Numbered from the stretch's first letter, positions 1 through 28,602 are shown. The stretch is 64,000 bases of DNA from an uncultured Bacilli bacterium (GCA_934095865.1 CAKOKU010000001.1:10812-74811); one strand, 5' to 3'. Notes: a model not told the origin generated them from the sequence alone. Numbers and translations are program-made.

Positions 1-139
1 CAAGAGAACTAAATCCTTCTATTAATTCTTGATTAATTATTTTTAAAATTCTATTATTCGGAAGTTCATATATTTTAGAACTTTCGCCAATGTGAACTAG
101 CTTTTTTTCTTTAAAAGTTGAAACTTCGATTTTTTCCAT
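1..139 (-). CDS. Partial CDS (first 46 codons, runs off left edge); unknown function, N-terminus resembles the kinase-like paralogues at 19955-22194
   Basis: Reverse-strand ATG at 139 preceded by GGGAGA; open to position 1: MEKIEVSTFKEKKLVHIGESSKIYELPNNRILKIINQELIEGFSSL. Absent from ORF track because no stop lies in the window. G-x4-IYE-x7-K-x-IN pattern shared with the 19955 gene. Confidence 0.5.
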   Translation of the reverse strand, partial: MEKIEVSTFKEKKLVHIGESSKIYELPNNRILKIINQELIEGFSSL

Positions 140-7268: not shown

Positions 7269-7288
7269 AATGTGGTTGGTGAACTAGT

Positions 7289-9568
7289 ATGATAATAGGG
7301 ATGTCGTTTATTGTTTGCAGCTTAATTTATACATTACTACTTTGTGTTATATATTTTTCTAAATCAAGAATAAAGACAATAGAAACAAGAATGTATGCTG
7401 TACTTTTGATATTAAATGTTGTTGGTTTAATTTTAGAGTTCTTTTGTTGCTTAACTGTTAAAAATCAAGCTGTTATTCCAATTATTAATACGATTGTGAA
7501 TAGAGCCTATTTAGTTTATTTTACTACTTTTATCACGTTATTTACAATTTATATTTATATTATTTGTAATAAAAAGGATTCTGTTAATAAACATTTACTT
7601 CAATTGTTTAACAAGTATGAAATTACGTGGTTTTCTTTATTATTTATTGTGCTGTTGGTTGGGGTATTGTTTTTTCCAATTGAATATTATTATGATGGTG
7701 TGTCTGTTTATTCATTTGGAGCGGCTCCCAATGTTTTAATGATATTTAGTGCTATATACATGATTATTGATGTCATTTCTGTATCTTTAAATATTAAAAA
7801 GATAAAAAAAAGAAAATTAATTCCTTTAATTACATTATTTATTTGTTTTGTAATTGCGTTTATTGTAAGAAATATTAATCCTGGCATTATTCTTATTACT
7901 TGTTCTTTTGCTTTTGTAACAGCTGTAATGTATTTTACAATTGAAAATCCTGATTTAAAAATGGTTAATCAATTAGAACTTGCTAAAAATGAAGCAGAAA
8001 AAGCGAATAGGGCAAAGTCAGATTTCTTGTCTAGTATGAGTCATGAAATAAGAACGCCATTAAATGCTATTGTTGGTCTTTCTAATGATATGAAAGAACG
8101 TGGTAATTGTCCAGAAGATATGAAAGAAGATCTTAATGATATTGTTAGTGCTTCTAATACTTTATTAGAAATAGTTGGAAATATTATGGATATTAATAAG
8201 ATAGAGTCTGATAAAATGGAAATTATTGAGATTCCATATAATTTTAAAGAAGAAATAGAAACTTTAGCGCGTATTGATTCAGTTAGAATTGGTGACAAAC
8301 CAATTGAATTAAAGGTTGATATTGAACAAGATATTCCTTATGAGTTGATTGGGGATAAGGGGCATATTAAGGAAATTGTTAATAATTTATTATCTAATGC
8401 GATTAAATATACCGATGCCGGAACAATTAACTTGAGTGCCAAATGTATAAATAAAGATAATATTTGCAAGCTTATTATAACTTGTAGAGATACTGGTAGA
8501 GGTATTAAAGCAGAAAATATTACTAGATTGTTTAGTAAGTTTGATAGATTAGATGTTGAAAGAAATACAACAGTTGAAGGTACTGGTTTAGGACTTGCTA
8601 TTACCAAAAAATTAGTAGAGCTGATGGGTGGGTCTATTAATGTGCAGTCAACGTTTGGTGAAGGTTCAATTTTTATGGTTACCATACCACAAAGAATTGG
8701 AAAGATGAGCAAACCACTTACTGAAGAGGAACTACTTAATACAGCGCAGATAATGTTAGATGCTAATAAGAATATTGAAATTTATGCTGATAAGAGAATC
8801 TTAGTAGTAGATGATAATAAATTAAATATTAAAGTTGCTAGACGAGCTTTGGAACCTTTGAAATTTGCTTTAATAGATGATGCTGGAAATGGTCAAGAAT
8901 GTCTAGATAAAATAAAAGCAGGAAACAACTATGATGTTATTTTGATGGATATTATGATGCCAATTATGAGTGGTGAGACAGCTATTAAAAAATTACACGA
9001 AATAAAAGGTTTTAATACACCCGTAGTTGCCTTGACTGCGGATGCTATAAGTGGCGCCGAAGAAAAATATAAAAGTGAAGGCTTTGTAAGCTATATTGCA
9101 AAACCTTTTAGTAAAGAACAAATAAAATTAAAATTAGATAGTATTTTTAATAAATCAATAAGCAATGAGGATGTAGATAAGGAAACTAACATATCTAGTG
9201 AAGCCAAAGAAAATTATTTGTTAGACAATGGTATAAATTATAGGAATGGCATTGAATTGTTTGGAGATATAGAAACTTATAATGAAATGCTAAGTGATTG
9301 GTATCATGATTGTGAACAAAAATGGTCAAAAGTCAAAGAATTGTACCAAAATTCTGATATGAAAAATTATTCTGTTGAAGTTCATTCTTTAAAAAGTGAT
9401 AGTAAATATTTTGGCTTTACTAAATTGGCGGAATTAGCGTTAAATCATGAACTAAGAAGTAAGGAAAATGACCTTAAATATGTTAAAAGTAATTTTAAGA
9501 CGTTAGAAAAAGAATATCAAAGAATTGTTAAAATTGTTGCTGTATATTTAAAAAATAAAGAAAGTTAA
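7289..9568 (+). CDS. Hybrid sensor histidine kinase (polytopic TM sensor, HisKA, HATPase_c, REC, HPt)
   Basis: About 6-7 TM helices. H-box SHEIRTPLN; G-boxes DTGRGI and GTGLGL; receiver DVILMDIMMP and KPF; C-terminal HPt VHSLKSDSKYFG (His codon 9383-9385). Confidence 0.9.
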   Translation: MIIGMSFIVCSLIYTLLLCVIYFSKSRIKTIETRMYAVLLILNVVGLILEFFCCLTVKNQAVIPIINTIVNRAYLVYFTTFITLFTIYIYIICNKKDSVNKHLLQLFNKYEITWFSLLFIVLLVGVLFFPIEYYYDGVSVYSFGAAPNVLMIFSAIYMIIDVISVSLNIKKIKKRKLIPLITLFICFVIAFIVRNINPGIILITCSFAFVTAVMYFTIENPDLKMVNQLELAKNEAEKANRAKSDFLSSMSHEIRTPLNAIVGLSNDMKERGNCPEDMKEDLNDIVSASNTLLEIVGNIMDINKIESDKMEIIEIPYNFKEEIETLARIDSVRIGDKPIELKVDIEQDIPYELIGDKGHIKEIVNNLLSNAIKYTDAGTINLSAKCINKDNICKLIITCRDTGRGIKAENITRLFSKFDRLDVERNTTVEGTGLGLAITKKLVELMGGSINVQSTFGEGSIFMVTIPQRIGKMSKPLTEEELLNTAQIMLDANKNIEIYADKRILVVDDNKLNIKVARRALEPLKFALIDDAGNGQECLDKIKAGNNYDVILMDIMMPIMSGETAIKKLHEIKGFNTPVVALTADAISGAEEKYKSEGFVSYIAKPFSKEQIKLKLDSIFNKSISNEDVDKETNISSEAKENYLLDNGINYRNGIELFGDIETYNEMLSDWYHDCEQKWSKVKELYQNSDMKNYSVEVHSLKSDSKYFGFTKLAELALNHELRSKENDLKYVKSNFKTLEKEYQRIVKIVAVYLKNKES

Positions 9569-9626
9569 TAATTAGTTTACTTTCTTTTTTTTGTTTGCTA
9601 GAATAATTTTTGAATTAGGAGCTATT

Positions 9627-10574
9627 ATGAAAAACTATGGTATAATGCATTTTCAATATGCAAATTTAGAAAATTTTACATCTGCTATGGGGATGGAAAT
9701 TCGAAAAAAAATGAATAAATATTTACGAGATATTTTAAAAAAGGCAGCGAAAGAGGAGATTGTTGTTGAACATTATCCACAACTTCATGATGACGAAGCT
9801 TATATTTTTGTTTCTTTGCATAATTTTGTAGAAGATACAATTGTTAATTTAGCGACAATTGATCGAAATGCTTATCTTCTATTTGGGACGACTGACCAGT
9901 TAAAAGTAAATAAGGAGATGTACTTTGCTTGGCTAAATGGTTTTATTTATGTTGATAGAACAGATAAAACTAATCGTGCCATGGCTTTAGAAAAAATGGC
10001 TAGAGTTTTAAATAATGGTAATAGTGTTTTGATTTTTCCCGAGGGTGGATTTAATAATACTGAAAATGTATTATGTCAAAAATTATTTGCTAGTCCATTT
10101 ATTTTAGCTAAAAAAACCGGTGCTAAAGTCGTACCAATTGCTCCTTTTTATGAGTATGGTTCTTCTAAAGTTTATATAAATGTTGGCGAACCATTAGATT
10201 TAGCAGCATTCGATGATAAGAAAGAGGCCCTTTTGTACCTACGCGATATTTTATCAACATTGTTATATGAATTAATAGAAAAATATTCAACACCCATAGC
10301 CAGAGCTGAATTACAAGGCGATTTTAGAATGGCATTTATGGAACAAAGAAAAAAAGAATATATGAAAACGAAATGGACTAAGGATGTTTGGGATGAAGAA
10401 TTAACTAGATATTATGATGCCAAAGAAAGAGATTATTTAGATATGCTTGCAAGTATTGACAATATAAAAGTAACTATTGAAAATGGTGGTATTTTGGGTC
10501 CAACTTTAGTAAGAAGGCTTGAAGATAAAAAATATGATTTTAAACAATATATGCATGAAAATTGGAACAAATAA
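9627..10574 (+). CDS. PlsC/LPLAT-family acyltransferase (1-acyl-sn-glycerol-3-phosphate acyltransferase-like)
   Basis: H-x4-D motif HNFVED and FPEGG motif. Start moved to the ATG at 9627 (AGGAG RBS). Confidence 0.7.
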   Translation: MKNYGIMHFQYANLENFTSAMGMEIRKKMNKYLRDILKKAAKEEIVVEHYPQLHDDEAYIFVSLHNFVEDTIVNLATIDRNAYLLFGTTDQLKVNKEMYFAWLNGFIYVDRTDKTNRAMALEKMARVLNNGNSVLIFPEGGFNNTENVLCQKLFASPFILAKKTGAKVVPIAPFYEYGSSKVYINVGEPLDLAAFDDKKEALLYLRDILSTLLYELIEKYSTPIARAELQGDFRMAFMEQRKKEYMKTKWTKDVWDEELTRYYDAKERDYLDMLASIDNIKVTIENGGILGPTLVRRLEDKKYDFKQYMHENWNK

Positions 10575-10615
10575 AATTTAAATGTTATAATAAACCTATA
10601 ATAGGAGTTGATTTT

Positions 10616-12859
10616 ATGCATTTTCAATCATTGGAATTTGAATTACCCTTTTTCTCGTTTATTTTTATCTTTATGTTATGGATTGTGTATACTTTTAAGA
10701 AAAAAGTGCCGTTAGTAGAAAACAAACCATACGAAGTAATTTTATATTGTTCGTTATTTTCCTCTTTTTTAGATACGATTGTTCATATAATTAGTGCATT
10801 TTCAACTTTAAATGAATTAAATACTACATATTTTAGATTAATAGATTTTCTGAATAAGATAATGTCGACTTTATTTGTTATTATTTTTAGTTGTTTACTT
10901 TTATACACTTTAATTATATCTTATCCTAAAGTAAAGGAGAATTTTAAAAAGTATGCTTTAAGTTTCATAATAGTTGATAGTTTATTTTTTATCACGACAT
11001 TATTTACTTATATTGAAATAATTGAGATTGTTGGCGTTAGAAATGTTAATGGTTTGACTATTTATTTGGGTTATACTTTTGTAGCATTATTTTTACTTGC
11101 TAGTATTATTACTACAATCATTAATTTTAAAAAAGATAAAAGATATTATGCTGTTTATTCAATATTACTGACGATGATTCTTTTATATGCCTGTTCATTA
11201 GTTTTTAAAGGTTTAATTATTTATGATGTTATTTTAGCTTTATTATGTTACATTATGTATTTTACAATTGAAAATCCTGATATTAAAATGATTAAAAAGT
11301 TAGAGTTTTTAAGAGATGAAGCAGAAAAGGCCAACCGAGCTAAGACAGATTTTTTGGCTAGTATGAGTCATGAGATAAGAACTCCTTTAAATGCCATTAT
11401 TGGCTTTTCTAATGATATTATTGAACACAAAGAAGATGCCTCGGAAGAGATTCTAGATGATAGTAAAAATATAGTAATGGCTTCTAATACATTGTTAGAA
11501 ATTGTTGGTAATATTTTAGATATTAATAAGATTGAGGCAAATAAATTAGAAGTTGAAGAAGTAAGTTATAAATTAAGAGATGAAATTTATAGTTTATGTG
11601 AGATTAATAAAATAAGAATTGGTCAAAAAAATATTGTATTTAATGTTAAAATTGATGATAATGTGCCAGATAATTTAATTGGTGATAAGCTAAAGTTAAA
11701 AACCATAGTTAATAATCTAGTAACGAATGCGATTAAATATACCGAACATGGAAAAATTGATTTACAGATAGGGTTAATTGGTAAACTAGATGGTGATGTA
11801 GTTAATCTTAAGATTGTTTGCGAAGATACTGGTATTGGTATAAAAGAAGAAAATATTAGTAAGTTATTTACGAAATTTGAGAGATTAGATGTAGAAAAAA
11901 ATTCAACAATCGAAGGCACTGGCTTGGGATTGGTAATTACAAAAGCTTTAGTAGAAATACTCGGAGGCACAATAAAGGTTGAATCTTTTTATGGTATGGG
12001 ATCTAAGTTTATTGTTAATATTCCTCAAAAAATTAATAGAAGTACCATTATTACAGAAAATGGTAGTCTTAATAAAGAATTACAAAAAGAATCTATTAAT
12101 GATACTTTATACACTGATAAAAAAGTTTTAATTGTCGATGATAATAAGTTAAATATTAAAGTAGCTCGTCGCGTTTTAAAATCAATTGGTCTTAATTCTG
12201 ATGAATGTTATAATGGTGCCGAATGTTTGGAAAAGATTAAGCAAGGCAATAAATACGATGTTATTTTAACGGATATTATGATGCCAGTCATGAATGGCGA
12301 ACAAGCGCTTTTAGAGTTAAAAAAATTGCCTAATTTTGTAATGCCTGTAATTGCTTTAACTGCGGATGCTGTCAGTGGTGCTGAAGAAAAATATAGAAGT
12401 GAAGGCTTCGATGAATATATTTCTAAACCTTTTACGAAAGAACAGTTGCAATTTAAACTATCAAAAGTTTTGCAGAATAGTCAGCTAGATTTTACCTTTT
12501 TAAGCAAAAATGGTATTAATTTTGAGAAAAGTGATTTATATCTTAAAAATTCTTCTCAATATCTACAAAATTTAATGAAATGGCATAAAAATAGTAAAGA
12601 TGAATTTAAGATGTTAAAGCAGTCATGCGAGGAGTTTAATCTTGTCCATTACAGGAATGCTATTGAAAGATTACTAAATGAATGTAGTGAACTTGGGTTT
12701 GTCGATTTAAAAATTATTGCTGAAGAACATGAATTGCAATGTCGCGATGAAAAAAATAGTGATTATATTGTCAAGTATTTTAGTGAACTTGAAAAAGAAT
12801 ATAAAAAGATTGTTTTGACTTTAGATAAGTTCTTTAACAATAAAGATGGGGTGAAGTGA
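10616..12859 (+). CDS. Hybrid sensor histidine kinase, paralogue of 7289-9568, with degenerate HPt
   Basis: Same architecture: SHEIRTPLN, DTGIGI, GTGLGL, DVILTDIMMP. In a gapless alignment of the C-terminal domain, Glu (12665-12667) sits where the paralogue has the HPt His. Start moved to the ATG at 10616 (AGGAG RBS). Confidence 0.9.
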   Translation: MHFQSLEFELPFFSFIFIFMLWIVYTFKKKVPLVENKPYEVILYCSLFSSFLDTIVHIISAFSTLNELNTTYFRLIDFLNKIMSTLFVIIFSCLLLYTLIISYPKVKENFKKYALSFIIVDSLFFITTLFTYIEIIEIVGVRNVNGLTIYLGYTFVALFLLASIITTIINFKKDKRYYAVYSILLTMILLYACSLVFKGLIIYDVILALLCYIMYFTIENPDIKMIKKLEFLRDEAEKANRAKTDFLASMSHEIRTPLNAIIGFSNDIIEHKEDASEEILDDSKNIVMASNTLLEIVGNILDINKIEANKLEVEEVSYKLRDEIYSLCEINKIRIGQKNIVFNVKIDDNVPDNLIGDKLKLKTIVNNLVTNAIKYTEHGKIDLQIGLIGKLDGDVVNLKIVCEDTGIGIKEENISKLFTKFERLDVEKNSTIEGTGLGLVITKALVEILGGTIKVESFYGMGSKFIVNIPQKINRSTIITENGSLNKELQKESINDTLYTDKKVLIVDDNKLNIKVARRVLKSIGLNSDECYNGAECLEKIKQGNKYDVILTDIMMPVMNGEQALLELKKLPNFVMPVIALTADAVSGAEEKYRSEGFDEYISKPFTKEQLQFKLSKVLQNSQLDFTFLSKNGINFEKSDLYLKNSSQYLQNLMKWHKNSKDEFKMLKQSCEEFNLVHYRNAIERLLNECSELGFVDLKIIAEEHELQCRDEKNSDYIVKYFSELEKEYKKIVLTLDKFFNNKDGVK

Positions 12860-16709: not shown

Positions 16710-18596
16710 ATGAAATATGTAATAAAAAATGGCGCTGTTAGCATTGATGGAAAAAGTGTGTTAGAGTGCATTAATTTAGAAATAAATGATCATGATAAGA
16801 TAGCTATTGTTGGGAAGAATGGGGCTGGTAAAACTACGTTATTAAATGCCATTGTTGATAATAATTTATTGGAAGAAGGTATTGGTGATGATAAGTTTCA
16901 GATAATAAAACAGGGAAATCCGAGTATTGGTTATCTAAAACAAATAGAACTAAATGATAATAATACATTGATTGAAGAAGTTAGAAAACCGTTTGCAAAT
17001 CTAATAAAAATGGAAGAAAAATTAAATAATTTGTTATTAAAAATGCAATCTGGTAGTGATTCAAAAGCTACTATGGGGTATTCAGTTTTAGAAGAACAAT
17101 TTAAATTAAATGATGGCTATAATTATAAGAAAGAATATGAAGTTTTATTAAAAAAATTTGGCTTTACTGAGGAAGATAAAAATAAATTATTAAAAGATTT
17201 TTCTGGTGGTCAAAAAACTAAGATAGCTTTTGTTAAAATGCTTTTAGATAAACCTGATATACTTCTTTTAGATGAACCGACAAATCATTTAGATGTAGAT
17301 ACTGTTGAGTGGCTTGAAGAATATTTAAGAAATTACAAGAAGGCCATTATTTTAGTATCACATGATAGAATGTTTATTAATAATATTGTTGATATTGTTT
17401 ATGATATTAGTTACGGTGCTACGACGAAATATACGGGTAATTATGATTATTATGAAAAGCAAAAGCAATTAAATTATGAAAAAGCCTTAAAGGATTATGA
17501 GTACCAACAAAAAGAAATCAAGAAACTTACTAGTATATATGAGAGATTTAGAAGTAAACCATCGAAAGCTAGTATGGCGATGTCTAGATTACATATGTTA
17601 GAAAAAATGGATATTTTAGAACGACCAAATAAAATAGAAGCAATGACTTTTAGAACTAATATGGATAATATTCCTAATTGTGGTAGAGATGTCTTAATAA
17701 CTAATGATTTACAAGTTGGCTATGAACAATCTCTTTATACTTTAAATCTGTTTGTGCGTAGAAAAGATAAATTGGGTATTATAGGACCAAATGGATTAGG
17801 CAAATCAACGATTTTAAAAACAATTGCTGGTAAAACTCCGCAACTTGGTGGTACTTTTACTTGGAATAATGGAGTTAAAATAGGCTATTTTGATCAAAAT
17901 TTAGCGATGTTAGATGAAAATAACAGTATTTTGGAAGAATTTATGGCTACTTATCCAACAATTTTGGAATATGAAGCTCGTACGTTTTTGGGATCATTTT
18001 TATTTAAAGGTGATGATGTATATAAGAAGTTGAATGTTTTATCTGGTGGCGAAAGAGTAAGACTCCAGTTATGTAAAATCTTTTATAGTAAGCCTAATGT
18101 TTTATTATTGGATGAACCGACAAATCATTTAGACATCGTTGGCCGTGAATATTTAGAGGAAATTTTAAGTGTTTATGGTGGTACAATTATATTTGTATCT
18201 CATGATAGATATTTTATCAAAAAAGTTGCTAATTCTTTATTAGTATTAAATAAAGAAAGTGCTACTTATTATGCTGGTGGTTATACTGATTACTTGAATA
18301 ATATTAAAACAACTGTTAGCAGTGTTGATGTTAATTCAAAGGAAAATAAAAATTTAACAGGTAATAAAGAGAAGAAAAATAATTATACTTTAAGTAAAGA
18401 ACTAAAAGCTTTAGAGCGAAATATAAGTAAATTAGAATTGAATATTAAAAAATTGGAAGAAAGTCTATATTTGGAAGAAATTTATAATAATCGCGAAAAA
18501 CTGGTTGCTGTAAATAATGAGATTAGTGCAAAGAAGGAAGAATTGGAAAGTCTTAATAATAAGTGGTTAGAATTGTCTGTTGAACTTGAGAATTAA
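16710..18596 (+). CDS. ABC-F family ATPase (two ABC domains, no TMD)
   Basis: Two Walker A motifs (GKNGAGKTT, GPNGLGKST), two signature motifs (FSGGQK, LSGGER) and a C-terminal coiled coil. Start at the ATG at 16710 after GGAGGTGG. Confidence 0.9.
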   Translation: MKYVIKNGAVSIDGKSVLECINLEINDHDKIAIVGKNGAGKTTLLNAIVDNNLLEEGIGDDKFQIIKQGNPSIGYLKQIELNDNNTLIEEVRKPFANLIKMEEKLNNLLLKMQSGSDSKATMGYSVLEEQFKLNDGYNYKKEYEVLLKKFGFTEEDKNKLLKDFSGGQKTKIAFVKMLLDKPDILLLDEPTNHLDVDTVEWLEEYLRNYKKAIILVSHDRMFINNIVDIVYDISYGATTKYTGNYDYYEKQKQLNYEKALKDYEYQQKEIKKLTSIYERFRSKPSKASMAMSRLHMLEKMDILERPNKIEAMTFRTNMDNIPNCGRDVLITNDLQVGYEQSLYTLNLFVRRKDKLGIIGPNGLGKSTILKTIAGKTPQLGGTFTWNNGVKIGYFDQNLAMLDENNSILEEFMATYPTILEYEARTFLGSFLFKGDDVYKKLNVLSGGERVRLQLCKIFYSKPNVLLLDEPTNHLDIVGREYLEEILSVYGGTIIFVSHDRYFIKKVANSLLVLNKESATYYAGGYTDYLNNIKTTVSSVDVNSKENKNLTGNKEKKNNYTLSKELKALERNISKLELNIKKLEESLYLEEIYNNREKLVAVNNEISAKKEELESLNNKWLELSVELEN

Positions 18597-18889
18597 TGCC
18601 TAAAATATGCAAAGTAAGGGCTTTTGTGTATAGTAAGAAAGAATTTAATAAATCTCTTCAATGTATTAAGGATATAAATGAGAAAACTTTAATTTTAGCT
18701 ATTGAAAATATGAATTTGGTTTCACTAAATTTTAATATTCATGATTATGATCCTTCAGATTTTAAAAAAGTTAATGAAACTGTTTATAGAAAAGAAGAAG
18801 AATTGTATAAAATTAATGGTTACTTTTCTGCTTTGTCTTTAATAGGTGTTATGTTAGTCGATTTAGGTTTAGTAATAGAATCAGATTAA
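18596..18889 (+). CDS. Hypothetical protein, hydrophobic C-terminus
   Basis: 97-aa ORF whose ATG overlaps the ABC-F stop (TAATG). No recognisable motif. Confidence 0.4.
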   Translation: MPKICKVRAFVYSKKEFNKSLQCIKDINEKTLILAIENMNLVSLNFNIHDYDPSDFKKVNETVYRKEEELYKINGYFSALSLIGVMLVDLGLVIESD

Positions 18890-19006: not shown

Positions 19007-19786
19007 ATGACAAAATATGATTTTAAAGATAAAGTTGTGTTGATTACTGGGGCCGGTAGTGGCATTGGAGAAGAATGTGCTAAGAGATTTAGCGAAAGTG
19101 GTGCGATTGTTGTCTTATGTGACAATAAAGAAGACAGAATTCAGAAAGTAAAAGAAGAACTCGGCGGTAAATGCGTAGCTTGTAAAATTGATGTTACCAA
19201 TTATGCTAATATAGAAAAACTAGTTAAATTTGTTGTAGATAAGTTAGGACATATAGATGTGGTAGTAAATTCGGCTGGAATTTGTAAGTTGATGCCAATT
19301 GATGAAATGTCAATTGAAACTGTTGATGCCTTGATAGATATAAATTTAAAAGGCACAGTTTATATGAGTAAAGCTTTAGCGCCTATTATGAAAAATCAAA
19401 AATCAGGAAAAATTATTAATATGTCTAGTATAGCTGGTCGTATTTGTAATAGTGGTTCAAATGTTTATGCTACTACAAAGGCTGGTATTATGGCCATAAC
19501 TAGTAGTATGGCTCGTGAATTAGCTGAATATAATGTTAATGTTAATTCAGTTTTACCAGGTATTGTACGCACTAATATGTGGGAAGGTATCTTAGATGAC
19601 TTTACTAATAAAGATGATTCTATAAGAGAACAAACATTTAAACAATCTACTGATGCTATTCCTTTAAAAAGACCACAAACAGTTGATGATATAGCTAATA
19701 TGGTTTTATTCTTAGCTAGTGAAGATGCTAAAAATATTACAGCTCAAAATATTGCTGTTGATGGTGGATATACTTTTGATATGTAA
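19007..19786 (+). CDS. Short-chain dehydrogenase/reductase (FabG-like)
   Basis: TGAGSGIG cofactor motif, NSAG, catalytic YATTKAG (YxxxK). AGGAG RBS. Confidence 0.85.
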   Translation: MTKYDFKDKVVLITGAGSGIGEECAKRFSESGAIVVLCDNKEDRIQKVKEELGGKCVACKIDVTNYANIEKLVKFVVDKLGHIDVVVNSAGICKLMPIDEMSIETVDALIDINLKGTVYMSKALAPIMKNQKSGKIINMSSIAGRICNSGSNVYATTKAGIMAITSSMARELAEYNVNVNSVLPGIVRTNMWEGILDDFTNKDDSIREQTFKQSTDAIPLKRPQTVDDIANMVLFLASEDAKNITAQNIAVDGGYTFDM

Positions 19787-19900: not shown

Positions 19901-19929
19901 TTGACATTGCTAATAATATGTAATATCCT
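19901..19929 (+). promoter_or_regulatory. Promoter-like element TTGACA-17-TATCCT
   Basis: TTAATTGACA ... TATCCT. The same layout recurs at 21396-21424 upstream of the third paralogue. Confidence 0.4.
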
Positions 19930-19954
19930 ATTATGAATTTATGGGGTGATAAGT

Positions 19955-20680
19955 GTGGCACTTATAAGAGTAAAAGGTATTGAAGAATTAAATTTAAGAG
20001 GTAAATCAATTAATGCTGGCGACCATGGTGAAATCTATGAATTTGATTCTACACATTATTTTAAAAGAATAAATGATGCTGATGGATTATTAAATAATAC
20101 TACAAATTATCAACGTAAAAACATATTAGAGTTTTTGATGAAATTTAAAGGTACAAAACATTTAGTTTTTCCTGAAGATATTTATGTTACTAAAGAGCAA
20201 TTGCTTGGCTATACTTCTGTGAAGAAGGATGCCAAACCGTTAGCGTCTTTAGATGATGATGCCAGATTAGCCGATGTTTTAAAATCTTTTAAAGTATTAC
20301 TAAAAGAATTAAAAATTTTAGCAAATGGTGGTGTTTTTAATTATGATTTATCTCCCGACAATGTCTTATTTGATAAAGAAATGTGGGTTATAGATTTTGA
20401 TGAAAGTTCTTATAATAAAAAGCTTAGCTATGAAAGAATGGTTTTGCGTCTTTTCCAAACTGTTAGAGATTCAATAGTTGGTGATTGCTATGCTTCGCCT
20501 TTATTAAGACAAAGAGATTTAGAAGAGTTATACCGTCAATTTGTGTCGTATGAGTCTTTAGATTATGATGCCTATTTTCGCTTATTAATATCAAATGCCG
20601 AGTATGCAAATTATTTTAAAAGAGTAAAAACGGTCGGCGATTTAAGAAGAAGCTTAGAAATAGCAAAGAAAAATTTATGA
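19955..20680 (+). CDS. Minimal protein-kinase-like fold protein, paralogue 1 (motifs intact)
   Basis: NYDLSPDNVLF (20339-20371) matches a kinase catalytic loop; VIDFDES (DFD at 20393-20401) matches the metal-binding motif. FKRIN gives a candidate VAIK-type Lys. GTG start at 19955 yields MALIRVKGIEE, parallel to the paralogues. Confidence 0.6.
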   Translation: MALIRVKGIEELNLRGKSINAGDHGEIYEFDSTHYFKRINDADGLLNNTTNYQRKNILEFLMKFKGTKHLVFPEDIYVTKEQLLGYTSVKKDAKPLASLDDDARLADVLKSFKVLLKELKILANGGVFNYDLSPDNVLFDKEMWVIDFDESSYNKKLSYERMVLRLFQTVRDSIVGDCYASPLLRQRDLEELYRQFVSYESLDYDAYFRLLISNAEYANYFKRVKTVGDLRRSLEIAKKNL

Positions 20681-21373
20681 GTAAAATAAGAGTTAAAAGT
20701 ATAGAAGAAATACCATTAAAAAGTGATGAAATTAATCGTGGCAATGGTGGTGTTATATATTTAACTAGAGCTGGCGATTATTTTAAATTATTAAATCCAG
20801 AATATAGATTTTGGCAAAACAGTAGTAATTACAATCGCCTTAGAATTCTAGAAAAACTGATGGGTCTTGGTCCTACTAATTATTTGGTATTACCTAAAGA
20901 TATTTATGTTACAGATGAAGCACTACTTGGTTATACCATGAATATTTGTAATGGAATACCATTGGGCTATTTTGCTGATAATATAAAATATGGTGATATT
21001 GTTAGAGCTTTTAATAATATTTTGAAAGAAATAAGATTTAGCTATTGAAAATATTGATATTTGCAGTGATAATGTGCTATTTGATGGTGTAAATCTTTAT
21101 ATGTTGGATTTTGATAATAGCATTAGTGATGTTAATCCAGAAATTGCATATAGATTGATGGCAAATGGTCTTTTAGGACTGGTATTAAGCAAAATTATAG
21201 ATGATTTTGTGGTTCCTGATAAAGATTTAATTAATTTTAAAAATCAGCTTGATATGCTAAGAAGTGAGAATCATAGTTTTTATTTACTTTTATTAAAATA
21301 TAAGTTAGAAAGATATTGTGGGATGGATATTAAAACTGTTGGTGATATTCGCCGAATATTACGTTTGCTTTAG
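20677..21373 (+). pseudogene. Kinase-like paralogue 2, split by a frameshift near 21034
   Basis: ORFs 20677-21048 and 21074-21373 are the N- and C-terminal halves. Shifting +1 at 21034/21035 restores LKEI/DLAIENIDICSDNVLFDGVNLYMLDFDNS, colinear with paralogue 1. Confidence 0.7.
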
Positions 21374-21395
21374 CTTCTATAATAGGTGATTTTAA

Positions 21396-21424
21396 TTGAC
21401 TTTCTTAAGAATTAATTATATCCT
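21396..21424 (+). promoter_or_regulatory. Promoter-like element TTGACT-17-TATCCT
   Basis: TTAATTGACT ... TATCCT, duplicated from the 19901 element. Confidence 0.4.
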
Positions 21425-21447
21425 AAGTAGTATGAAAAGGTGAAATT

Positions 21448-22194
21448 ATGGCAATTATAAAAGTTAAGAATATACAAGAGATTGGTTTTAGTAATGATAT
21501 AGTACGTACAAGCAGAACTGGCGTTAATTATACTATGCCTGGACAGGATAATGTTGTTTTCAAAAGATTAAATAATGATACTGGTTTTTTAGATTCACAA
21601 GAAAGTGAGGACCGTTTTAATACTTTAGTTGAATTGATGAATAATGGTAAGGTTTATACCGGTTGTGAAATTCCTCAAGATATATATATTTCTGGGGATG
21701 GGGTATATTTATATGGATATTCATTATTAGATAGTGGTAAATCATCTTTAAAAAGTAGACAAAACTATGATGGAAGTTATATTAAATTTTTAATTGATTA
21801 TAAAAAATTTTTAGCTGAACTTCGTGAAATGGCAAATCATGGAGTTAGTCATTATGGCATTGATTCTTCGACTTTATTATATAGTCGTAACGATGGCTTT
21901 ACTTTAAGTAGTGTAGATGAGTGCAGACATTCTGGTTATATTGCTCTATATCAGGAAATGGGTGCAAAATCTTTTGAAGTTATTAAAGGATATATTACAA
22001 GGGGTTACGAAGAATCGCCAATTTTAAGAGATGGTGGCTTACAAGCGTTAGAAGAAGCATTTAAAAATCGTAGTCGTGCTTGTTATATGAGATATTTATA
22101 TAAATTACAATTTGAGACTTCGATGGAATTAGGTAGTCCAGCTACAAGTATTGAAGATGTAAGAAATGGTCTAAAACATAGTTTAAAAAGATAA
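21448..22194 (+). CDS. Kinase-like paralogue 3 with degenerate catalytic motifs (predicted pseudokinase)
   Basis: N-terminus MAIIKVKNIQE and VFKRLNN are conserved. The catalytic loop becomes HYGIDSSTLLY and DFD becomes SSVDE. AAGGTG RBS. Confidence 0.6.
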   Translation: MAIIKVKNIQEIGFSNDIVRTSRTGVNYTMPGQDNVVFKRLNNDTGFLDSQESEDRFNTLVELMNNGKVYTGCEIPQDIYISGDGVYLYGYSLLDSGKSSLKSRQNYDGSYIKFLIDYKKFLAELREMANHGVSHYGIDSSTLLYSRNDGFTLSSVDECRHSGYIALYQEMGAKSFEVIKGYITRGYEESPILRDGGLQALEEAFKNRSRACYMRYLYKLQFETSMELGSPATSIEDVRNGLKHSLKR

Positions 22195-22300: not shown

Positions 22301-23399
22301 ATGGATATAAGAGAAATTAAGTTAAAATATAATGATTTAGTTAATAAAGTTAGTGAAATTGGGAGGTCTCTTTGACGTAGAGGCTAAAAAAAATAGAATA
22401 AAGGAACTAGAAACTGCTTTAAACGATAGCTCTATTTGGAGTGATTTAGAACGTGCAAATAAGATTAATGCTGAATTGACTAATTTAAAAAAAGAAATAA
22501 GTGGCATAAGTAAAATTAATCTTAGTATAGAAACAATTGCCTTAATGTTAGATGAAGCAACAAGTGATGCTGAACTTATGAATGAAGTGGCATTAGAGAT
22601 TGAAAATGTTTCTAAAGAAGTTGAGGAACTTTATATAGCAACTCTTTTAAATGGACCTTATGATAATTTAAATTGCTTTTTAGAAATTCATCCTGGAGCT
22701 GGTGGTACCGAGGCTTGTGATTGGGCAAGTATGCTTCTTAGAATGTATGAACGTTTTTGTGAAAAAAATAATTATAAATATGAAGTAATAGATTTTCTTA
22801 AAGGGGAAGAAGCCGGTGTTAAGTCTGTAACTTTAAGAATTAGCGGGTTTAATGCTTATGGTTATTTTAAAGGCGAAAAGGGTATTCATCGTTTGGTAAG
22901 AATATCTCCATTTGATTCAAATAAGAGAAGACACACGTCTTTTGCTTCTGTTAGTGTAGTTCCTGAATTTGAAAAGATAAGTGATATTGAAATAAAAGAT
23001 GAAGACTTAAAAATAGACGTTTTTCATTCTAGTGGGGCTGGCGGTCAATCTGTTAATACTTCTGATAGTGCCGTAAGAATTACCCATTTACCAACTAATA
23101 TAGTTGTTAGTTGTCAGGTAGAACGTAGTCAATTAAGAAATAAAGAACGTGCAATGGAAATGTTAAAATCAAAGTTATATCAATTAGAAGTTGAAAAAAA
23201 AGAAGCTGAATTAAATAAAGAAAAAGGCTTAAATTCTAGTATTAATTTCGGTAGTCAAATAAGAAATTATGTTTTAGAACCATATACTTTAGTGAAGGAT
23301 GTAAGAAGTGGTTATGAAACTAGTCAAGCATTTAAAGTATTAGATGGAGATATTTTAGATATAATGCAATCAGTTTTAAAAAAGAATATAAATAAGTAA
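22301..23399 (+). CDS. prfB: Peptide chain release factor 2, expressed through a programmed +1 frameshift
   Basis: Frame 0 reads MDIREIKLKYNDLVNKVSEIGRSL then TGA (22373-22375). The +1 frame continues DVEAKKNRIKELE. RF2 motifs SPF and GGQ (SGAGGQSVN) are present. Confidence 0.92.
22361..22376 (+). promoter_or_regulatory. RF2 autoregulatory +1 frameshift site
   Basis: Internal SD-like GGGAGG, then TCT CTT TGA C (slippery CUU-UGA-C). Confidence 0.9.
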
Positions 23400-23439: not shown

Positions 23440-25095
23440 ATGAAAAAGTTAACTAGTTGTAGAAGAAAGGCGGCTTTTTTTCTTTCTTTATGTATAGTAA
23501 TTAATACTACTTGTTTTAGTTTGTTAGGTAATAAAAAAAGTGATGTAAAAAATAATGCTGGTATGGTTGAGGCTTTAGAGTATGAGGATACGATTGAAGC
23601 AACTGAGATTGACCAGCAAAAATGTTTGAAATTAATTGAAGAAATAAAAAGAATAAGCTTCAATGCCCAAGAAAAAACTTTATTAAGTGAAGCTGAACTT
23701 GATAGTTTTTTAAATAGAAAGACAGTTGGAGAATGTACTTATTCTTTTGATGGGGATTATACGGATATTCTGCGAGCTATTCGAGATAACTCACGGGCTT
23801 TTATAGATTCAGATAAAACTGCAAATTATCACTCTTTAGATGATGTTGATTACTTAAGAAGTTTAGGTAAATATGTTGATGTTAATGCCGAAGAAATGGC
23901 TTTATGGATTAATGAATGTTTGAAAAGTAGGATAAATAAAGTATTAGCGTCTGGAAATAAAGAACATATTCATAAATTAGCTTACTTAAAAATAGTTTTT
24001 AGGACTTTGCCAGAAGAAGAATTGGGTAATTATGATTCAGATAACAATACAATAGTTTTATCTATTCAGAATTTCTTAAAAAAATGTTTTATTAAAGATG
24101 ATTTTTATGCTGGTATTTATAATATTTTCAATCATGAAATTAATCATGCTTTTCAATACCCTTGTTCAGATATTTTAGAAATAAATGGTATTCAATATTG
24201 TGCCTTTTATAAAGAAAGTTCGGCTGAAAGTTATAATTGGTTAAAAAATCAATGCCCATATCAATCAAAAAATAAAAAATATAATTATACTTATGGATAT
24301 TTAGAAGAAAGAAAACATGAAGGAGATATTTTATTAATTAATTTTTTAGATACTTCTAAATCTTTAGATGGATATTATGATGTTATTTTTAACAATGATA
24401 TGTTAGGTCTTGGCAGTTATTTAGGCCTTGATTTTAGTCAAACAAAAGAATTAGTTTGTGCGATGTATTTAATGGATGCTGCAAGTTTAAGAAATAACTA
24501 TTGGCAACAGGCTTTTCATACTCAAGATTTAGCCAGTATTGATGCTAACATTGATAAAACAGTTGGAATGCTGGTTAATGGTGTTTCTGAAGGCGTGGTT
24601 TTAAAATTATCATTGACTAATTTATTAATGAAGACATTAGATGGCAGTGTAACATTAGAAGAAAATTTAGCCCTTTATTATTTCATTTTGGTTAATATAT
24701 TTGATTCAGTTTGTTATAGTGATTATGATTATGCCAATGAAATTTCAACAGTAACTTATTATCAAGAATTTTGTTCAAAGTATCAAATAATGCAGGAAAT
24801 TTATTTTGAATTTTTAAGTAATTATTATGGTGTAGATATTGATGAGATAGTTGAAATGTTCTCTGATATTATTAATAGTGATTTTTTGACTTGCCTTAGT
24901 GATTATGTTGAATATGATCAAGTAGATGATAGTAAGTATGGCATTTTGATTAAAAGATTAATGACTACTTATCCAACAATGTATTTTATTGCTAATGACG
25001 GGACGGTATTTTCTAATTTTAATATTGATAGTATTAGAATGCTATTAGCAGATAGCGCTATAAAAAGTAAATATTTAGTGTTAACTTTGGGGTAA
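23440..25095 (+). CDS. Exported HExxH protein, paralogue 1 (putative zinc metallopeptidase of an unrecognised family)
   Basis: N-terminal signal or lipoprotein-like peptide (FFLSLCIVINTTC). HEINH at 24133-24147. Colinear similarity to the next two genes. Confidence 0.6.
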   Translation: MKKLTSCRRKAAFFLSLCIVINTTCFSLLGNKKSDVKNNAGMVEALEYEDTIEATEIDQQKCLKLIEEIKRISFNAQEKTLLSEAELDSFLNRKTVGECTYSFDGDYTDILRAIRDNSRAFIDSDKTANYHSLDDVDYLRSLGKYVDVNAEEMALWINECLKSRINKVLASGNKEHIHKLAYLKIVFRTLPEEELGNYDSDNNTIVLSIQNFLKKCFIKDDFYAGIYNIFNHEINHAFQYPCSDILEINGIQYCAFYKESSAESYNWLKNQCPYQSKNKKYNYTYGYLEERKHEGDILLINFLDTSKSLDGYYDVIFNNDMLGLGSYLGLDFSQTKELVCAMYLMDAASLRNNYWQQAFHTQDLASIDANIDKTVGMLVNGVSEGVVLKLSLTNLLMKTLDGSVTLEENLALYYFILVNIFDSVCYSDYDYANEISTVTYYQEFCSKYQIMQEIYFEFLSNYYGVDIDEIVEMFSDIINSDFLTCLSDYVEYDQVDDSKYGILIKRLMTTYPTMYFIANDGTVFSNFNIDSIRMLLADSAIKSKYLVLTLG

Positions 25096-25154: not shown

Positions 25155-26864
25155 TTGAATAATATGAAAAAAAGACTAACATCGTTATTATTGGTGTTCT
25201 GCATCACGGTAAGTAATACGGGATGTAAGGTCTTTAAGCGTGCTAAAAATGACATAGAACTTAATGATTCTAGTGTTTCAGTTAGTGATATTGAGGCTAG
25301 TAATACAGAATTAGAAATTGCCTTTAGAGAATTTGTATCTTCCTTAGATAAAGTCGATGGTGTTGATAAAAAAATCCATTTTACAAAAAAAGAAGAGATA
25401 GAAATAACTACTTTGACTCCAACTCATGCTTGTGTTTATGAGTTTACGGGAACTGGACTAGATTTAATTGAATTAATAGAACAAAATACTGGCGAGTATT
25501 TAGAAGCACATAGTGAATATAAGAGCTTTTTTGATGATAGTTATATGAGTGAGGAGTCTTATGTAAATTACTTTGGGTTGGAACTTAATGAAGATGATAT
25601 CAAAAGAGTAAAAGAAGTTATGGCTGATGCCTTATACAATAAAGTGTTGTATGTCTTAAATAATGATACTGATGATGATGTTCATAAGTTAGCAACTTTA
25701 AGCATTGTGTTTGTAGAAGACTTTGCTAATTCCAATAGCAACTTTAGAACATATGGCGTGTATGAAAATAGTGAGAATGTTATTAAGATTTCTTTAAAAA
25801 ATATTTTGGATAGTTCAAATAGCTATTTTCGGGTAATTCAATCAGCTTATAATGCTGCTGCTCATGAACTAAGTCATATTGATGATTATGCTTGCTCTGA
25901 TCGATTGTTAGCTGGTGATAACGAAAAGATAGATTTTTTGAATAGAGAGTTTGTATCTTCACTAAGAGAAGCTGAAAATTCTAGTTTTCAACAAAGTGGC
26001 ATGGTAGATAATCCTTGGCGTACTTATATGTCATCATCCGATTATTGTTATGATAGCTTTCGCCAATTTGAATCATGTTTATTTTTAACTAATGCTTTTG
26101 ATAAAGATAAGACAATTGCTGATTATTATTTAGCTTTTAAGAGTAGTGATTTATCAAAATTATATGAATATTTTTCTCTGATGACTAAAGAAGAGCAAAT
26201 AGAATTTATTAAAATAATTTATGCTTATGATGCCACTCAGGCCAGAAACAATTATGCAGCTAGTTTTACTAGTGAAGATGCTAAAGAAAGATATTGGCAA
26301 GTTGAAGATAGTTTAGAAAAAAGTTATTTTATTAGTATTTTAAAGATGGCCTTGATTAATTTGGCTCAATATAATGTTAATAATGAAGGGGATTTAAACT
26401 GTAAAGATAACTTGATGCTTTATTATTATATTATGATTACTATTGCAGATAATGCAGCTTTAGCTGATGTAGATAGTAATGGGGAGGCAGTAGTTTATTT
26501 TTATGATAGTTTTTGTCGTAATTATAAACAGATTGAGGAAAGCTTTTTCAGATTTTTAAGTGCTTGTTATGGAATGTCAGTGGAAGAAGTTCAAGAAATG
26601 TATAAAAAAACTTCAAGTGATGAATTACTGACTAAGATAAATAAGATAGATTGTTATGATGAAAATAAGTTAACAAGAATTGGTCGGCTTTTTGATAAGT
26701 TTAGCAATTTAAAGGTTGCTTTAAGAAGCCGAGATAAAGATATAGATACAGGGTTAATGATAGATAATATTTGGTTACAAGTTTTAGAGCAGCTTAATGA
26801 TTATGATGATGAAAAGCAAAATATATTAGGGTTAAATGTAGTAAGGAGAAATTATCATGAATAA
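25155..26864 (+). CDS. Lipoprotein with HExxH motif, paralogue 2
   Basis: Lipobox-like LLLVFCITVSNTGC. HELSH at 25863-25877. TTG start 9 nt after GGAGG (alternative ATG at 25164). Confidence 0.6.
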   Translation: MNNMKKRLTSLLLVFCITVSNTGCKVFKRAKNDIELNDSSVSVSDIEASNTELEIAFREFVSSLDKVDGVDKKIHFTKKEEIEITTLTPTHACVYEFTGTGLDLIELIEQNTGEYLEAHSEYKSFFDDSYMSEESYVNYFGLELNEDDIKRVKEVMADALYNKVLYVLNNDTDDDVHKLATLSIVFVEDFANSNSNFRTYGVYENSENVIKISLKNILDSSNSYFRVIQSAYNAAAHELSHIDDYACSDRLLAGDNEKIDFLNREFVSSLREAENSSFQQSGMVDNPWRTYMSSSDYCYDSFRQFESCLFLTNAFDKDKTIADYYLAFKSSDLSKLYEYFSLMTKEEQIEFIKIIYAYDATQARNNYAASFTSEDAKERYWQVEDSLEKSYFISILKMALINLAQYNVNNEGDLNCKDNLMLYYYIMITIADNAALADVDSNGEAVVYFYDSFCRNYKQIEESFFRFLSACYGMSVEEVQEMYKKTSSDELLTKINKIDCYDENKLTRIGRLFDKFSNLKVALRSRDKDIDTGLMIDNIWLQVLEQLNDYDDEKQNILGLNVVRRNYHE

Positions 26865-28602
26865 TAATATGAGTTATGGTGAAAAATCGATTGAAAAAAG
26901 AAGAAAACAAGAGGCTAAGAGAAATAAAATTTTAGGATCAATTGCTTTAGTGGTTGCTATTAATGTGGCTTTAGTAAGTGCTTATTTACATGGTGGTGTT
27001 GGTGCTGTCTTAGCAGCGGTCAAGAAAAATAAGAGTGAAGATGAAGAATCTGCAATTGCTTTAATGACAACTTCTGCTAGAGTTACTGGCGATGGTATTT
27101 CTGAGAATAATGATTTTAGTGAAATTTTATTTTTAAGTCAAAAAGAACAAGAAGAATTGTTAAGAAGAATTAATGATGGTTATCAAGATAAATGTACTTT
27201 TGAAAAAGAATGCAGTGCTGCTGATATAGTTAATACTATCATGAGTAATAGTGCTGATTTTGCTAGTAATCATCCTGGTTATTTATCACTATTTGATTAT
27301 GAAGGGTTAGCTTCTTATATTTTAACTAATGATATTGATATAGATGATTTTGATACGGCTATGAAAGCTATGACTACTGGGGTAATTTTTGTTGTTAAAG
27401 ATGCTTGTGCCAAATATGATGATGGTGTGATTGGCTCTAAAAGTGATATTCACAATTTAATGGATGTAAAGTTGGTACTAGATATTGAAGGTAAGAATCA
27501 AGTTGATGATGTTAATTGTATTGCCATTGACTATAAAGGTATTACTAGCCAAATAGAGGATAATCAACAGAAAAAGGTTGTTTATAATAGCGCTTTTATG
27601 GAATTAATGATTAGTAAACTTACTCGTATTATTCAACGTGATTGTCCTGAGTATGGAGCCGAGTCTAAAGTGTTGACTTATGATAGTGAGGTAGTTCCTT
27701 TTATACTAGATACTAGTACTATAAGTGTAATACCTAATTATTATGGTATAACATTGTCTAATAATTTTGATAAGACTTTACTTTTTGAAAGAAATGCTGA
27801 AGCCAAGCTTCTATTGCTTACTTTATTTGATAGAGATAAAGATATAAGTTGGTATTATAATGCTATAAATAAAAATGATTTAGCGAGCTTTTGTGAATAT
27901 TTTGGAGCTAATAGTAGTGAAGAACAACTTAGATTGTTTAATTTAATTGCCTCATATGATGCGGTTTATATGAGAAATTCTTATTATAAGAAAGTTAGAA
28001 ATATGCTTGATTTAACTGATTATACATCTTATGCTAAGGAAAAATTGGCTCAAAGAGTAGAAGATAAAATTGATTTTAGTAATGATGCTACTATTTTAGG
28101 TATTGCTATTGATAAAATGATTACAGATGCTAATAGCCACGCAGATTTGAGCATGATAGATTATTTTGACTTATTTGATTTTGTTTCTAGTGTTGCTTTT
28201 GCTGATACTTATTCTTCAGATAGTACTATGTCATTTGACGTATCTGATACTTTAATTGCCAAATATTTTGAACTTAAAGATAAATTTATTAAATCTATGG
28301 CAGTAAGATATGATTGTTCATTGGAAGATGCTTTAAACGCTTATGAAAATAATCGTCATAATTCATTATTTTTCTCATCTTTAGCTTATAAATCCGGTAG
28401 TGTTTATTATGATCCATCTGTTAGCTTGGACGATTATCCTTTCTTAGCAGATCAATACAGCTCTTCAAAAGGTGTATGTGATGATCTTTTAAAAGTATTT
28501 GGCAATTTAGATGATATTGCTAGATTATGTCCTAACTTTTATAAAGGCGTTCCAGAAAATGTTTTAGAATCTGGTAAAAAATTAAATAAAGATTTAAATT
28601 AA
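26857..28602 (+). CDS. Membrane-anchored paralogue 3 with degenerate metal site (MELMI in place of HExxH)
   Basis: Overlaps the upstream gene by 8 nt (AAGGAG RBS). N-terminal TM ILGSIALVVAINVALVSAYL without a lipobox Cys. MELMI at 27598-27612 aligns with the HExxH of its paralogues. Confidence 0.6.
   Translation: MNNNMSYGEKSIEKRRKQEAKRNKILGSIALVVAINVALVSAYLHGGVGAVLAAVKKNKSEDEESAIALMTTSARVTGDGISENNDFSEILFLSQKEQEELLRRINDGYQDKCTFEKECSAADIVNTIMSNSADFASNHPGYLSLFDYEGLASYILTNDIDIDDFDTAMKAMTTGVIFVVKDACAKYDDGVIGSKSDIHNLMDVKLVLDIEGKNQVDDVNCIAIDYKGITSQIEDNQQKKVVYNSAFMELMISKLTRIIQRDCPEYGAESKVLTYDSEVVPFILDTSTISVIPNYYGITLSNNFDKTLLFERNAEAKLLLLTLFDRDKDISWYYNAINKNDLASFCEYFGANSSEEQLRLFNLIASYDAVYMRNSYYKKVRNMLDLTDYTSYAKEKLAQRVEDKIDFSNDATILGIAIDKMITDANSHADLSMIDYFDLFDFVSSVAFADTYSSDSTMSFDVSDTLIAKYFELKDKFIKSMAVRYDCSLEDALNAYENNRHNSLFFSSLAYKSGSVYYDPSVSLDDYPFLADQYSSSKGVCDDLLKVFGNLDDIARLCPNFYKGVPENVLESGKKLNKDLN

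Follow-up and report, generated by a model that had tools for sequence, protein, structure and literature searches.

Bud32 (KEOPS) and RIO are archaeal and eukaryotic kinases with a small bilobal core, a D-[L]-[ST/H/N]-x-x-N catalytic loop that lacks the Lys of eukaryotic protein kinases (ePKs) and no activation loop, and both act on translation-related ribonucleoprotein (RNP) machinery. NleH and OspG, the smallest solved kinase domains, have a minimal core with neither an activation segment nor a substrate-binding lobe; these are secreted effectors of Gram-negative pathogens that carry N-terminal secretion regions. The catalytic domain of an ePK alone takes about 270 aa or more. Here we describe three genes, P1, P2 and P3 (positions 19901-22194), which lie head-to-tail on one strand between a short-chain dehydrogenase/reductase (SDR) gene and prfB, the gene for release factor 2 (RF2), in a 64,000-nucleotide stretch of DNA from an uncultured Bacilli bacterium (GCA_934095865.1, CAKOKU010000001.1:10812-74811), hereafter the window. 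An initial annotation, made from the sequence alone, had proposed these genes as paralogous minimal kinase-fold proteins, one intact, one frameshifted and one a predicted pseudokinase. The three ORFs are found where it had placed them, P2 and P3 are 39% and 26% identical to P1, and the role given to each copy was borne out by sequence and substitution patterns. We consider the triad to be, probably, a tandem set of old paralogues from a minimal protein-kinase-like (PKL) family, in which P1 would be the competent enzyme, P2 a pseudogene and P3 a pseudokinase, directed at a protein or RNP target. The superfamily is well known and the family within it is new, as are its size, the lesion in P2, the selection on the pseudokinase, the confirmed fourth copy and the linkage to prfB.

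Family and fold

A word-indexed homologue search with P1 alone returned P1 itself only. For an exhaustive hidden Markov model search, we used a profile built from the window's own sequences, with the C-terminal fragment of P2 taken from 21053. This yielded 149 cluster representatives at E <= 1e-3 and 28 at E <= 1e-10, mostly of 230-250 aa (clusters were defined at 50% identity), with genuine eukaryotic protein kinases at the weak end of the search (1e-5 to 1e-3). Among the clusters looked up, the sources checked gave no name beyond "hypothetical protein" (NCBI, for the window organism's copies). All recovered loci are low in GC (about 25-31% G+C), and several source records are human-gut metagenomes or metagenome-assembled genomes (MAGs) labelled "uncultured Tenericutes" or "uncultured Bacilli". 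The family is so far confined to low-GC uncultured bacteria, and we infer that the host lineages are an RF39-like group.

Conservation was counted in an alignment of 108 full-length members. The conserved columns are G21 (100 of 108), K36 (106), P72 (99), G84 (102), Y85 (100), D130 (103), N135 (103), D146 (105) and D148 (94), and they match six of the PKL superfamily's ten key residues (G52, K72, P104, D166, N171 and D184 in PKA numbering; Kannan et al, 2007, PMC1821047). The Gly-loop Gly, the beta3 Lys, the catalytic Asp and Asn and the metal-binding Asp are present in both P1 and P2; counted from the Met of P1, its key residues are G22, K37, D131, N136, D147 and D149. The motifs first read as the catalytic loop and metal-binding site of P1, N-Y-D-L-S-P-D-N-V-L-F at 20339-20371 and D-F-D at 20393-20401, were located exactly, and the proposed catalytic Lys, D-x4-N pair and DFD-type Asp correspond to columns K36, D130, N135 and D146. 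Across the family the catalytic loop reads D-[LIV]-[HNS]-x-x-N, with H, N or S, not K, at position D+2. The N-lobe is that of a canonical kinase, with Gly-loop, beta3 Lys, alphaC and a GY hinge, and the metal-binding motif is I-D-x-D, which we take to resemble the Kdo/WaaP-type motif. The last ~85 residues form a family-specific bundle of four helices with a T-x-x-D-x-R motif at its end.

An AlphaFold2 model of P1 made with the 108-sequence alignment has a pLDDT of 97.2 and a pTM of 0.92 (with only 4 sequences, the pLDDT was 51). Its elements follow in the order beta1-3, alphaC, beta4-5, alphaE, catalytic loop, beta7-8, DFD and then helices, and the run of helices starts about 10 residues past DFD, so that an activation segment is missing; the family has no APE motif either. 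AlphaE leads straight into the catalytic loop, with no CAK-type insert, and no long RIO/KdoK-type insert separates beta3 from alphaC (insert criteria from PMC1821047). Searching the PDB with this model using Foldseek gave 1367 chains at E <= 1e-3, of which the best 50 are all protein kinases, and a viral library returned kinases as well. When PDB sequences were searched with a broad profile (the 108 members), the matches included Staphylococcus aureus Stk1/PknB-type kinases (4eqm and 9ymt, 1.9e-10), NleH1, NleH2 and OspG (chains 4lrj, 4lrk and 4o96, 6e-10 to 3e-8, NleH1 being at 6e-10), YabT (6g4j, 3.4e-7) and CK2. As 10 of the 108 members match Pfam Pkinase, we repeated this search with a strict profile of the 19 closest sequences, which matched RSK (4e-4), Bud32 (2e-3 to 1e-2) and NleH1 and its relatives (3e-3); the best 60 of its 125 matches at E <= 1 are kinases only. 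Together, the model and the matches listed indicate a bilobal kinase fold and PKL membership. The kinase fold and the conserved catalytic residues, the two points on which the initial proposal hinged, were thus both found.

Curated models do not claim P1-P3 or their close relatives. P1 matches Pfam APH (PF01636) over residues 95-153 only, at 17.2 bits (E 0.0047; cut-off 23.2), and its other weak matches, to homoserine kinase (0.008) and Kdo kinase (0.012), are also at the catalytic loop. The Kdo kinase model PRK01723 gives 14.7 bits against a 142-bit cut-off, and the cut-off of PF06293 is not reached. P2 and P3 matched nothing relevant in Pfam and NCBIfam, and none of the three matched Pkinase (PF00069) at E <= 10. 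Most of the 108 members have no Pfam match even at E <= 0.01; at that threshold, Pkinase is matched by 10, RIO1 (PF01163) by 4, APH by 3, OspG_kinase by 3 and Kdo by 1, with further scattered weak matches to ABC1 and Kinase-PolyVal. Among the 19 closest members, no NCBIfam cut-off is reached (Bud32 models, TIGR03724 and others, match 1-2 of the 19 at 2.6e-4 to 9e-3, below cut-off), and PHROGs and PADLOC matches are weak only: P1 has no PADLOC match, and two relatives weakly match PD-T4-6 (8e-5) and MkoA. Since the kinase fold is matched and no curated threshold in Pfam, NCBIfam, PHROGs or PADLOC is passed by P1-P3, the clusters, at least 149 in number, are a previously unnamed family of the PKL superfamily; the initial annotation had likewise been unable to assign a named family.

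In grade, the family is closest to the minimal atypical kinases Bud32, RIO and NleH/OspG, and at about 240 aa P1-P3 are near the minimum size for a kinase fold. With Bud32 and RIO it shares the small bilobal core, the catalytic loop without the ePK Lys and the missing activation loop, and where those kinases act on translation-related machinery, the present family adjoins prfB. Unlike them, it is bacterial, has no member at a curated cut-off, lacks a conserved alphaC Glu or HxD His and ends in its own four-helix module, and no Kae1/TsaD-type partner gene adjoins it. The minimal core of NleH/OspG is matched too, but the present family is chromosomal, holds a stable position and carries the extra helical C-terminus. 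Hanks-type kinases give the best profile matches and the same fold by Foldseek, whereas the family is without their activation loop, APE motif, alphaG region, D-x-K-x-x-N loop and PASTA or sensor domains. For APH/CAK and Kdo kinases, the single-sequence matches of P1 span the catalytic loop to the DxD motif and are all below cut-off. Kdo kinases are similar in overall length, but the catalytic loop lies at residue ~130 of 241 in P1, the Kdo kinase model has it at profile position ~165 of 241, and the CAK insert of APH/choline kinases is absent from the P1 model.

Three copies and their history

P1 most likely starts at GTG 19955 (MALIRVK...), and gene calling in other assemblies yields an identical product of 241 aa (P0001; loci recovered from other assemblies are given below as L numbers, and proteins or clusters as four-digit P numbers). 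Selection was assessed from synonymous and non-synonymous counts between the window and strain L001 (97.6% identical). With 11 synonymous and 3 non-synonymous substitutions (pN/pS 0.07), P1 is under strong purifying selection, and its constraint equals that of the flanking genes (pN/pS 0-0.09), namely the SDR gene (17 and 3, 0.05), an ABC-F gene (33 and 12, 0.09) and prfB (15 and 0, 0).

P3 has K-G-T-S at the K-D-N-D columns and retains the Gly-loop Gly and the beta3 Lys; losses like these occur in ~5 of the 108 family members. Its counts (10.5 synonymous, 6.5 non-synonymous; pN/pS 0.15) reject neutrality (p = 5e-4), and the 248-aa ORF is intact in 20 members of the P0002 cluster. These near-identical copies from other strains of the same organism are the only relatives found for it beyond P1-P2-level similarity, and in a neighbour-joining tree it sits on a long branch. 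Because the catalytic D, N and D are lost yet purifying selection persists, P3 appears, by residue loss plus constraint, to be a maintained pseudokinase.

P2 is a recent pseudogene: a microhomology deletion of 11 nt has inactivated it, and this deletion is still polymorphic within the population. Frame 0 comprises 123 codons, and homologous sequence resumes at 21035, now in the +1 frame, and runs to 21373. The frameshift results from the loss of 11 nt (GATTATTGTGT) at 21034/21035, between GATT direct repeats, as seen when the DNA of the window and of L001 was aligned with the intact allele of L040. L040, the one strain with an intact P2, is 97.2% identical and encodes a 235-aa protein (P0249); that this allele differs by a simple 11-nt deletion identifies P2 as recently inactivated, and a sequencing error or a programmed frameshift was rejected on the same grounds. 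The deletion recurs in the independent assembly L001, and P2 fragments of 123-130 aa are found on dozens of contigs. With 6 synonymous and 11 non-synonymous substitutions (pN/pS 0.45), the pattern in P2 cannot be told apart from neutral change (p = 0.10), and it departs from that of the flanking genes (p = 3e-4).

In the neighbour-joining tree, P1 groups with the first copies of other species (L003_A and P0003, 43-44% identical to it) and P2 with second copies (P0004, 49% identical, L003_B and L005), while a decayed third copy in L003 and L004 resembles P0010. The number kept varies: L005 has one copy, L003 and L004 have two and a remnant, and the window organism has its A copy, a dead B copy and a C copy with a dead site. 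As P1 clusters in the tree with the A copies found elsewhere and P2 with their B counterparts, the triad appears from these phylogenetic groupings to be an old A/B/C paralogue set that was pruned differently by lineage. A recent local triplication was rejected, because other species carry orthologues of the A and B copies. A phage or mobile-element origin was rejected as well, since no relatives were found in phage genomes or viral contigs.

Position upstream of prfB and layout of the window

The initial annotation had seen nothing informative beside the block. It thereby missed the link to prfB, which the neighbourhood survey that it proposed brought out as a recurrent downstream neighbour: a family gene immediately precedes prfB, in the same orientation, in six divergent lineages, corresponding to 6 of the 8 contexts sampled (L003-L009 and L019-L023). 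The adjacency holds in every lineage of the P1 clade and also in three lineages whose kinases are 22-30% identical to P1, namely P0025 (L006-9), P0184 (L019-21) and P0009 (L022-23). Across the six lineages, RF2 is 65-79% identical and the kinases 22-44%. Upstream of the kinase the genes vary by lineage (an SDR, a deaminase, two unknown proteins or a Big_2 protein), and the prfB adjacency persists while both outer flanks change. The gap from the kinase stop to the start of the prfB leader is 1 nt in L006, 6-24 nt in L022 and about 47 nt in L019, and in these three lineages the arrangement looks operonic; in the window it is 106 nt with a terminator inside. We found no kinase upstream of prfB, nor a kinase link to translation termination, in the literature searched. 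Because the adjacency survives the change of flanks and looks operonic in three lineages, RF2 or translation termination is the leading partner candidate, a hypothesis that we nonetheless regard as doubtful. The SDR was rejected as a conserved functional partner: the window protein shares only 33% identity with its L006 counterpart, and SDR genes are missing from the other lineages.

Every prfB of these lineages has the canonical SD-CTT-TGA-C frameshift site, which in the window consists of the leader MDIREIKLKYNDLVNKVSEIGRSL and GGGAGG followed by CTT TGA C. As its prfB has the classical programmed +1 frameshift, the window organism reads UGA as stop (code 11), and does so although related MAGs are labelled "Tenericutes".

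The features of the kinase block are collected in Table 1. P1 and P2 overlap in an ATGA (20677-20680). A terminator scan returned a single site, the hairpin after P3 (0.4 expected in shuffled sequence). Of the two terminators proposed to bracket the block, this one was therefore recovered; the other, a hairpin at ~19787 after the SDR gene (GGTACTA-GAAA-TAGTATC plus T6), can be seen by eye and is too weak for the scan. The promoter-like elements claimed for the block fared similarly, being present upstream of P1 and P3 but drawn from a class no more frequent than in shuffled sequence (25 hexamer matches in the window versus 19.9 +/- 4.2). A block of ~40 nt containing these hexamers recurs in the regions upstream of P1 (19880-19957) and P3 (21374-21450), with the common sequence TTTAATTGAC[AT]TT..TAA.AAT...T[AT]ATATCCTA, and a promoter type or operator may thus be common to both units. 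An Rfam search of the window gave no match.

Table 1. Features of the kinase block, its neighbours and the left edge of the window.
Feature	Position	Strand	Description
Fourth family member	2..139	-	First 46 codons (MEKIEVSTFKEKKLVHIGESSKIYELPNNRILKIINQELIEGFSSL); gene runs past the window's left edge
SDR gene	19007-19786		Upstream neighbour of the kinase block
Promoter-like site, 5' of P1	19901..19929	+	TTGACA-17-TATCCT; consensus match only
P1	19955..20680	+	Intact 241-aa minimal protein-kinase-like protein, A-type paralogue
P2, N-terminal part	20677..21048	+	B-type paralogue; frame 0 ends at TGA 21046-21048 owing to the deletion
P2 deletion site	21034..21035	+	11 nt (GATTATTGTGT) missing, flanked by GATT repeats
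P2, C-terminal part	21035..21373	+	+1 frame; DICSDNVLF and LDFDNS retained
Promoter-like site, 5' of P3	21396..21424	+	TTGACT-17-TATCCT; consensus scan; paralogous to the P1 upstream block
P3	21448..22194	+	Putative 248-aa pseudokinase; beta3 Lys retained
Intrinsic-terminator-like hairpin and T-run, 3' of P3	22203..22228	+	Terminator scan
prfB (release factor 2)	22301..23399	+	Programmed +1 frameshift site GGGAGG..CTT TGA C at 22370-22376

Scanned in six frames with the profile of the triad itself, the window had, besides the triad, no ORF better than E = 0.07. The partial ORF at the left edge, which had been suggested as a fourth, dispersed member, matches the family profile A5 at E = 5e-6. 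Its complete counterpart in L014 (12836-13708), a locus retrieved via a 130-aa ASCH protein, encodes 290 aa, of which the first 46 are the same, reaches 73 bits with the family profile and has the K, the D..N loop and LLDFDG intact. The suggestion thus holds, in that the ORF is the start of a real, more distant family member. A look-up of a 606-aa protein near the left edge gave no match. In L014 (12836-15753, a region reaching past what the window covers on its left), the 290-aa gene is divergent from a NUDIX gene and is followed by a gene with an HTH of the Xre type, 233 aa long in some strains and 37 aa in others, and by three unannotated genes (143, 234 and 162 aa).

Elsewhere in the window, an acyltransferase gene has a large hybrid histidine kinase on either side (HisKA-HATPase_c-Response_reg, 759 and 765 aa), with an AMP-binding enzyme adjoining (5379-12859; annotation taken from the equivalent L014 genes), a pairing that is unusual for an apparently small genome. 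Between the ABC-F gene and the SDR gene lies a variable island. It holds a 97-aa ORF in the window (18596-18889), an AAA_21 ATPase (385 aa) and a 264-aa protein in L001 (6363-8369), which is 97.6% identical elsewhere, and two minus-strand genes in L003 (5492-6449); the L001 insert might be a defence-type cassette. Downstream of prfB are three tandem paralogues (23440-25095, 25155-26864 and 26857-28602) of ~550-580 aa that are 24-30% identical and have hydrophobic N-termini resembling signal peptides or anchors. As the first two carry HExxH (HEINH and HELSH), the sequences suggest that these may be zinc metalloproteases. L003 and L005 have, by appearance, similar-looking genes after prfB, one of them with H-E-x-x-H in comparable surroundings.

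Proposed function and alternatives

P1 would bind ATP-Mg via K37, N136 and D147, with D131 acting as the base for gamma-phosphate transfer to a substrate or for ATP hydrolysis. The C-terminal helical module may serve as a substrate platform, and P3 may have a non-catalytic, scaffolding or regulatory role. P1 would then be an atypical minimal kinase or ATPase of Bud32/RIO/NleH grade. A protein or RNP target is preferred over a small molecule because the profiles favour protein kinases, Bud32 and NleH and because the CAK insert is missing.

Several observations weigh against this assignment or against parts of it. The alphaC Glu is poorly kept (E in 35 of 108 at the column of P1 E58) and no conserved His precedes the catalytic Asp as in HxD, so the activity could, on these residues, be weak or ATPase-like; loss of either residue is known in genuine PKL families (Kannan et al, PMC1821047). 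The kinase activity of P1 is itself a prediction from sequence and model. The Foldseek TM-scores are 0.45-0.6 with large rmsd, as the C-lobe differs. The alignment behind the model and the best PDB E-values is the broad one, with its Pkinase-matching members, and the strict alignment gives PDB matches that are still kinase-only and much weaker. The weak matches of P1 itself go to small-molecule kinases. Substitution counts for P2 and P3 are small, at 17 each. With respect to prfB, a terminator separates it from P3 in the window, and the link is not universal: in one lineage (17 loci among L010, L012, L013 and L025-L039), the order is Zip (opposite strand) / QueH-kinase-zf_Tbcl-Mur ligase, and one locus has a third context. 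The adjacency could be inherited synteny without functional meaning. At these exceptional loci, QueH is epoxyqueuosine reductase, the zf_Tbcl zinc-finger protein has 58 aa and, in L010, the kinase start overlaps the end of QueH.

The family might instead consist of small-molecule kinases (of the APH/choline, homoserine-kinase-II or Kdo type) for a metabolite, sugar, lipid or antibiotic, perhaps in one pathway with the SDR, which we consider unlikely. APH, homoserine kinase and Kdo kinase are the only single-sequence matches of P1, the Ser/Thr-kinase Lys is absent from D+2, the P1 model has no activation loop, the I-D-x-D motif may be akin to the Kdo/WaaP type, and an SDR gene precedes the kinase genes in the window lineage and, two genes away, in L006. 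However, these matches all fall below curated cut-offs, and the family profiles match protein kinases, Bud32 and NleH ahead of APH or ChoK. The model also lacks the inserts of both the CAK and the RIO/KdoK type, the SDRs are not conserved across lineages, and no conserved transporter or pathway genes lie near family loci.

An array shaped by conflict, that is, an anti-phage defence or toxin-like kinase system in which an arms race produced the copy change, fast evolution and dead copies, seems very unlikely. It would account for the copy number of 1-3 with decayed copies across species, for kinases far more diverged than the adjacent RF2, for the weak PD-T4-6 and MkoA matches of two of the 19 closest members and for the variable island just upstream. 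Yet the chromosomal site beside prfB is stable over deep divergence, no partner, effector or antitoxin gene is conserved, P1 itself has no match in PADLOC, relatives are absent from the phage genomes and viral contigs searched, and the selection on P1 is purifying, not diversifying.

Lastly, it is hardly credible that P2 is functional, whether through programmed +1 frameshifting of the kind seen in the adjacent prfB or as two separate polypeptides: its frameshift is common to many assemblies, its pN/pS is 0.45 and not 1, and the second piece in L001 has an ATG just 5' of the catalytic loop, but a 97%-identical strain has the intact allele, the frame overlap has neither a shifty stop codon nor a Shine-Dalgarno-like stimulator, the frame-0 stop of the window is not shared by L001, the junction has a cluster of three non-synonymous changes, and the substitution pattern is compatible with neutrality and unlike that of the flanking genes.

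For the protein- or RNP-directed kinase family that we favour, the triad offers a comparison set within one locus: a copy predicted to be active, a freshly killed copy whose intact allele still segregates and a putative maintained pseudokinase. The family is unclaimed by Pfam, NCBIfam, PHROGs or PADLOC models for P1-P3 and their close relatives, and its minimal core, with no activation loop and with a C-terminal module of its own, informs what a minimal kinase core needs. The recurrent position upstream of prfB provides a concrete hypothesis, namely that in uncultured gut bacteria a kinase is linked to translation termination. In its most specific form, which is rather improbable, a fast-evolving kinase or ATPase for translation termination would have been ancestrally co-transcribed with prfB and would phosphorylate, or in the way of Bud32/RIO ATP-gate, RF2 or the terminating ribosome, with P3 as an allosteric partner or decoy. 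If true, such a kinase would tune UGA termination or the frameshift autoregulation of prfB in small-genome gut Bacilli.

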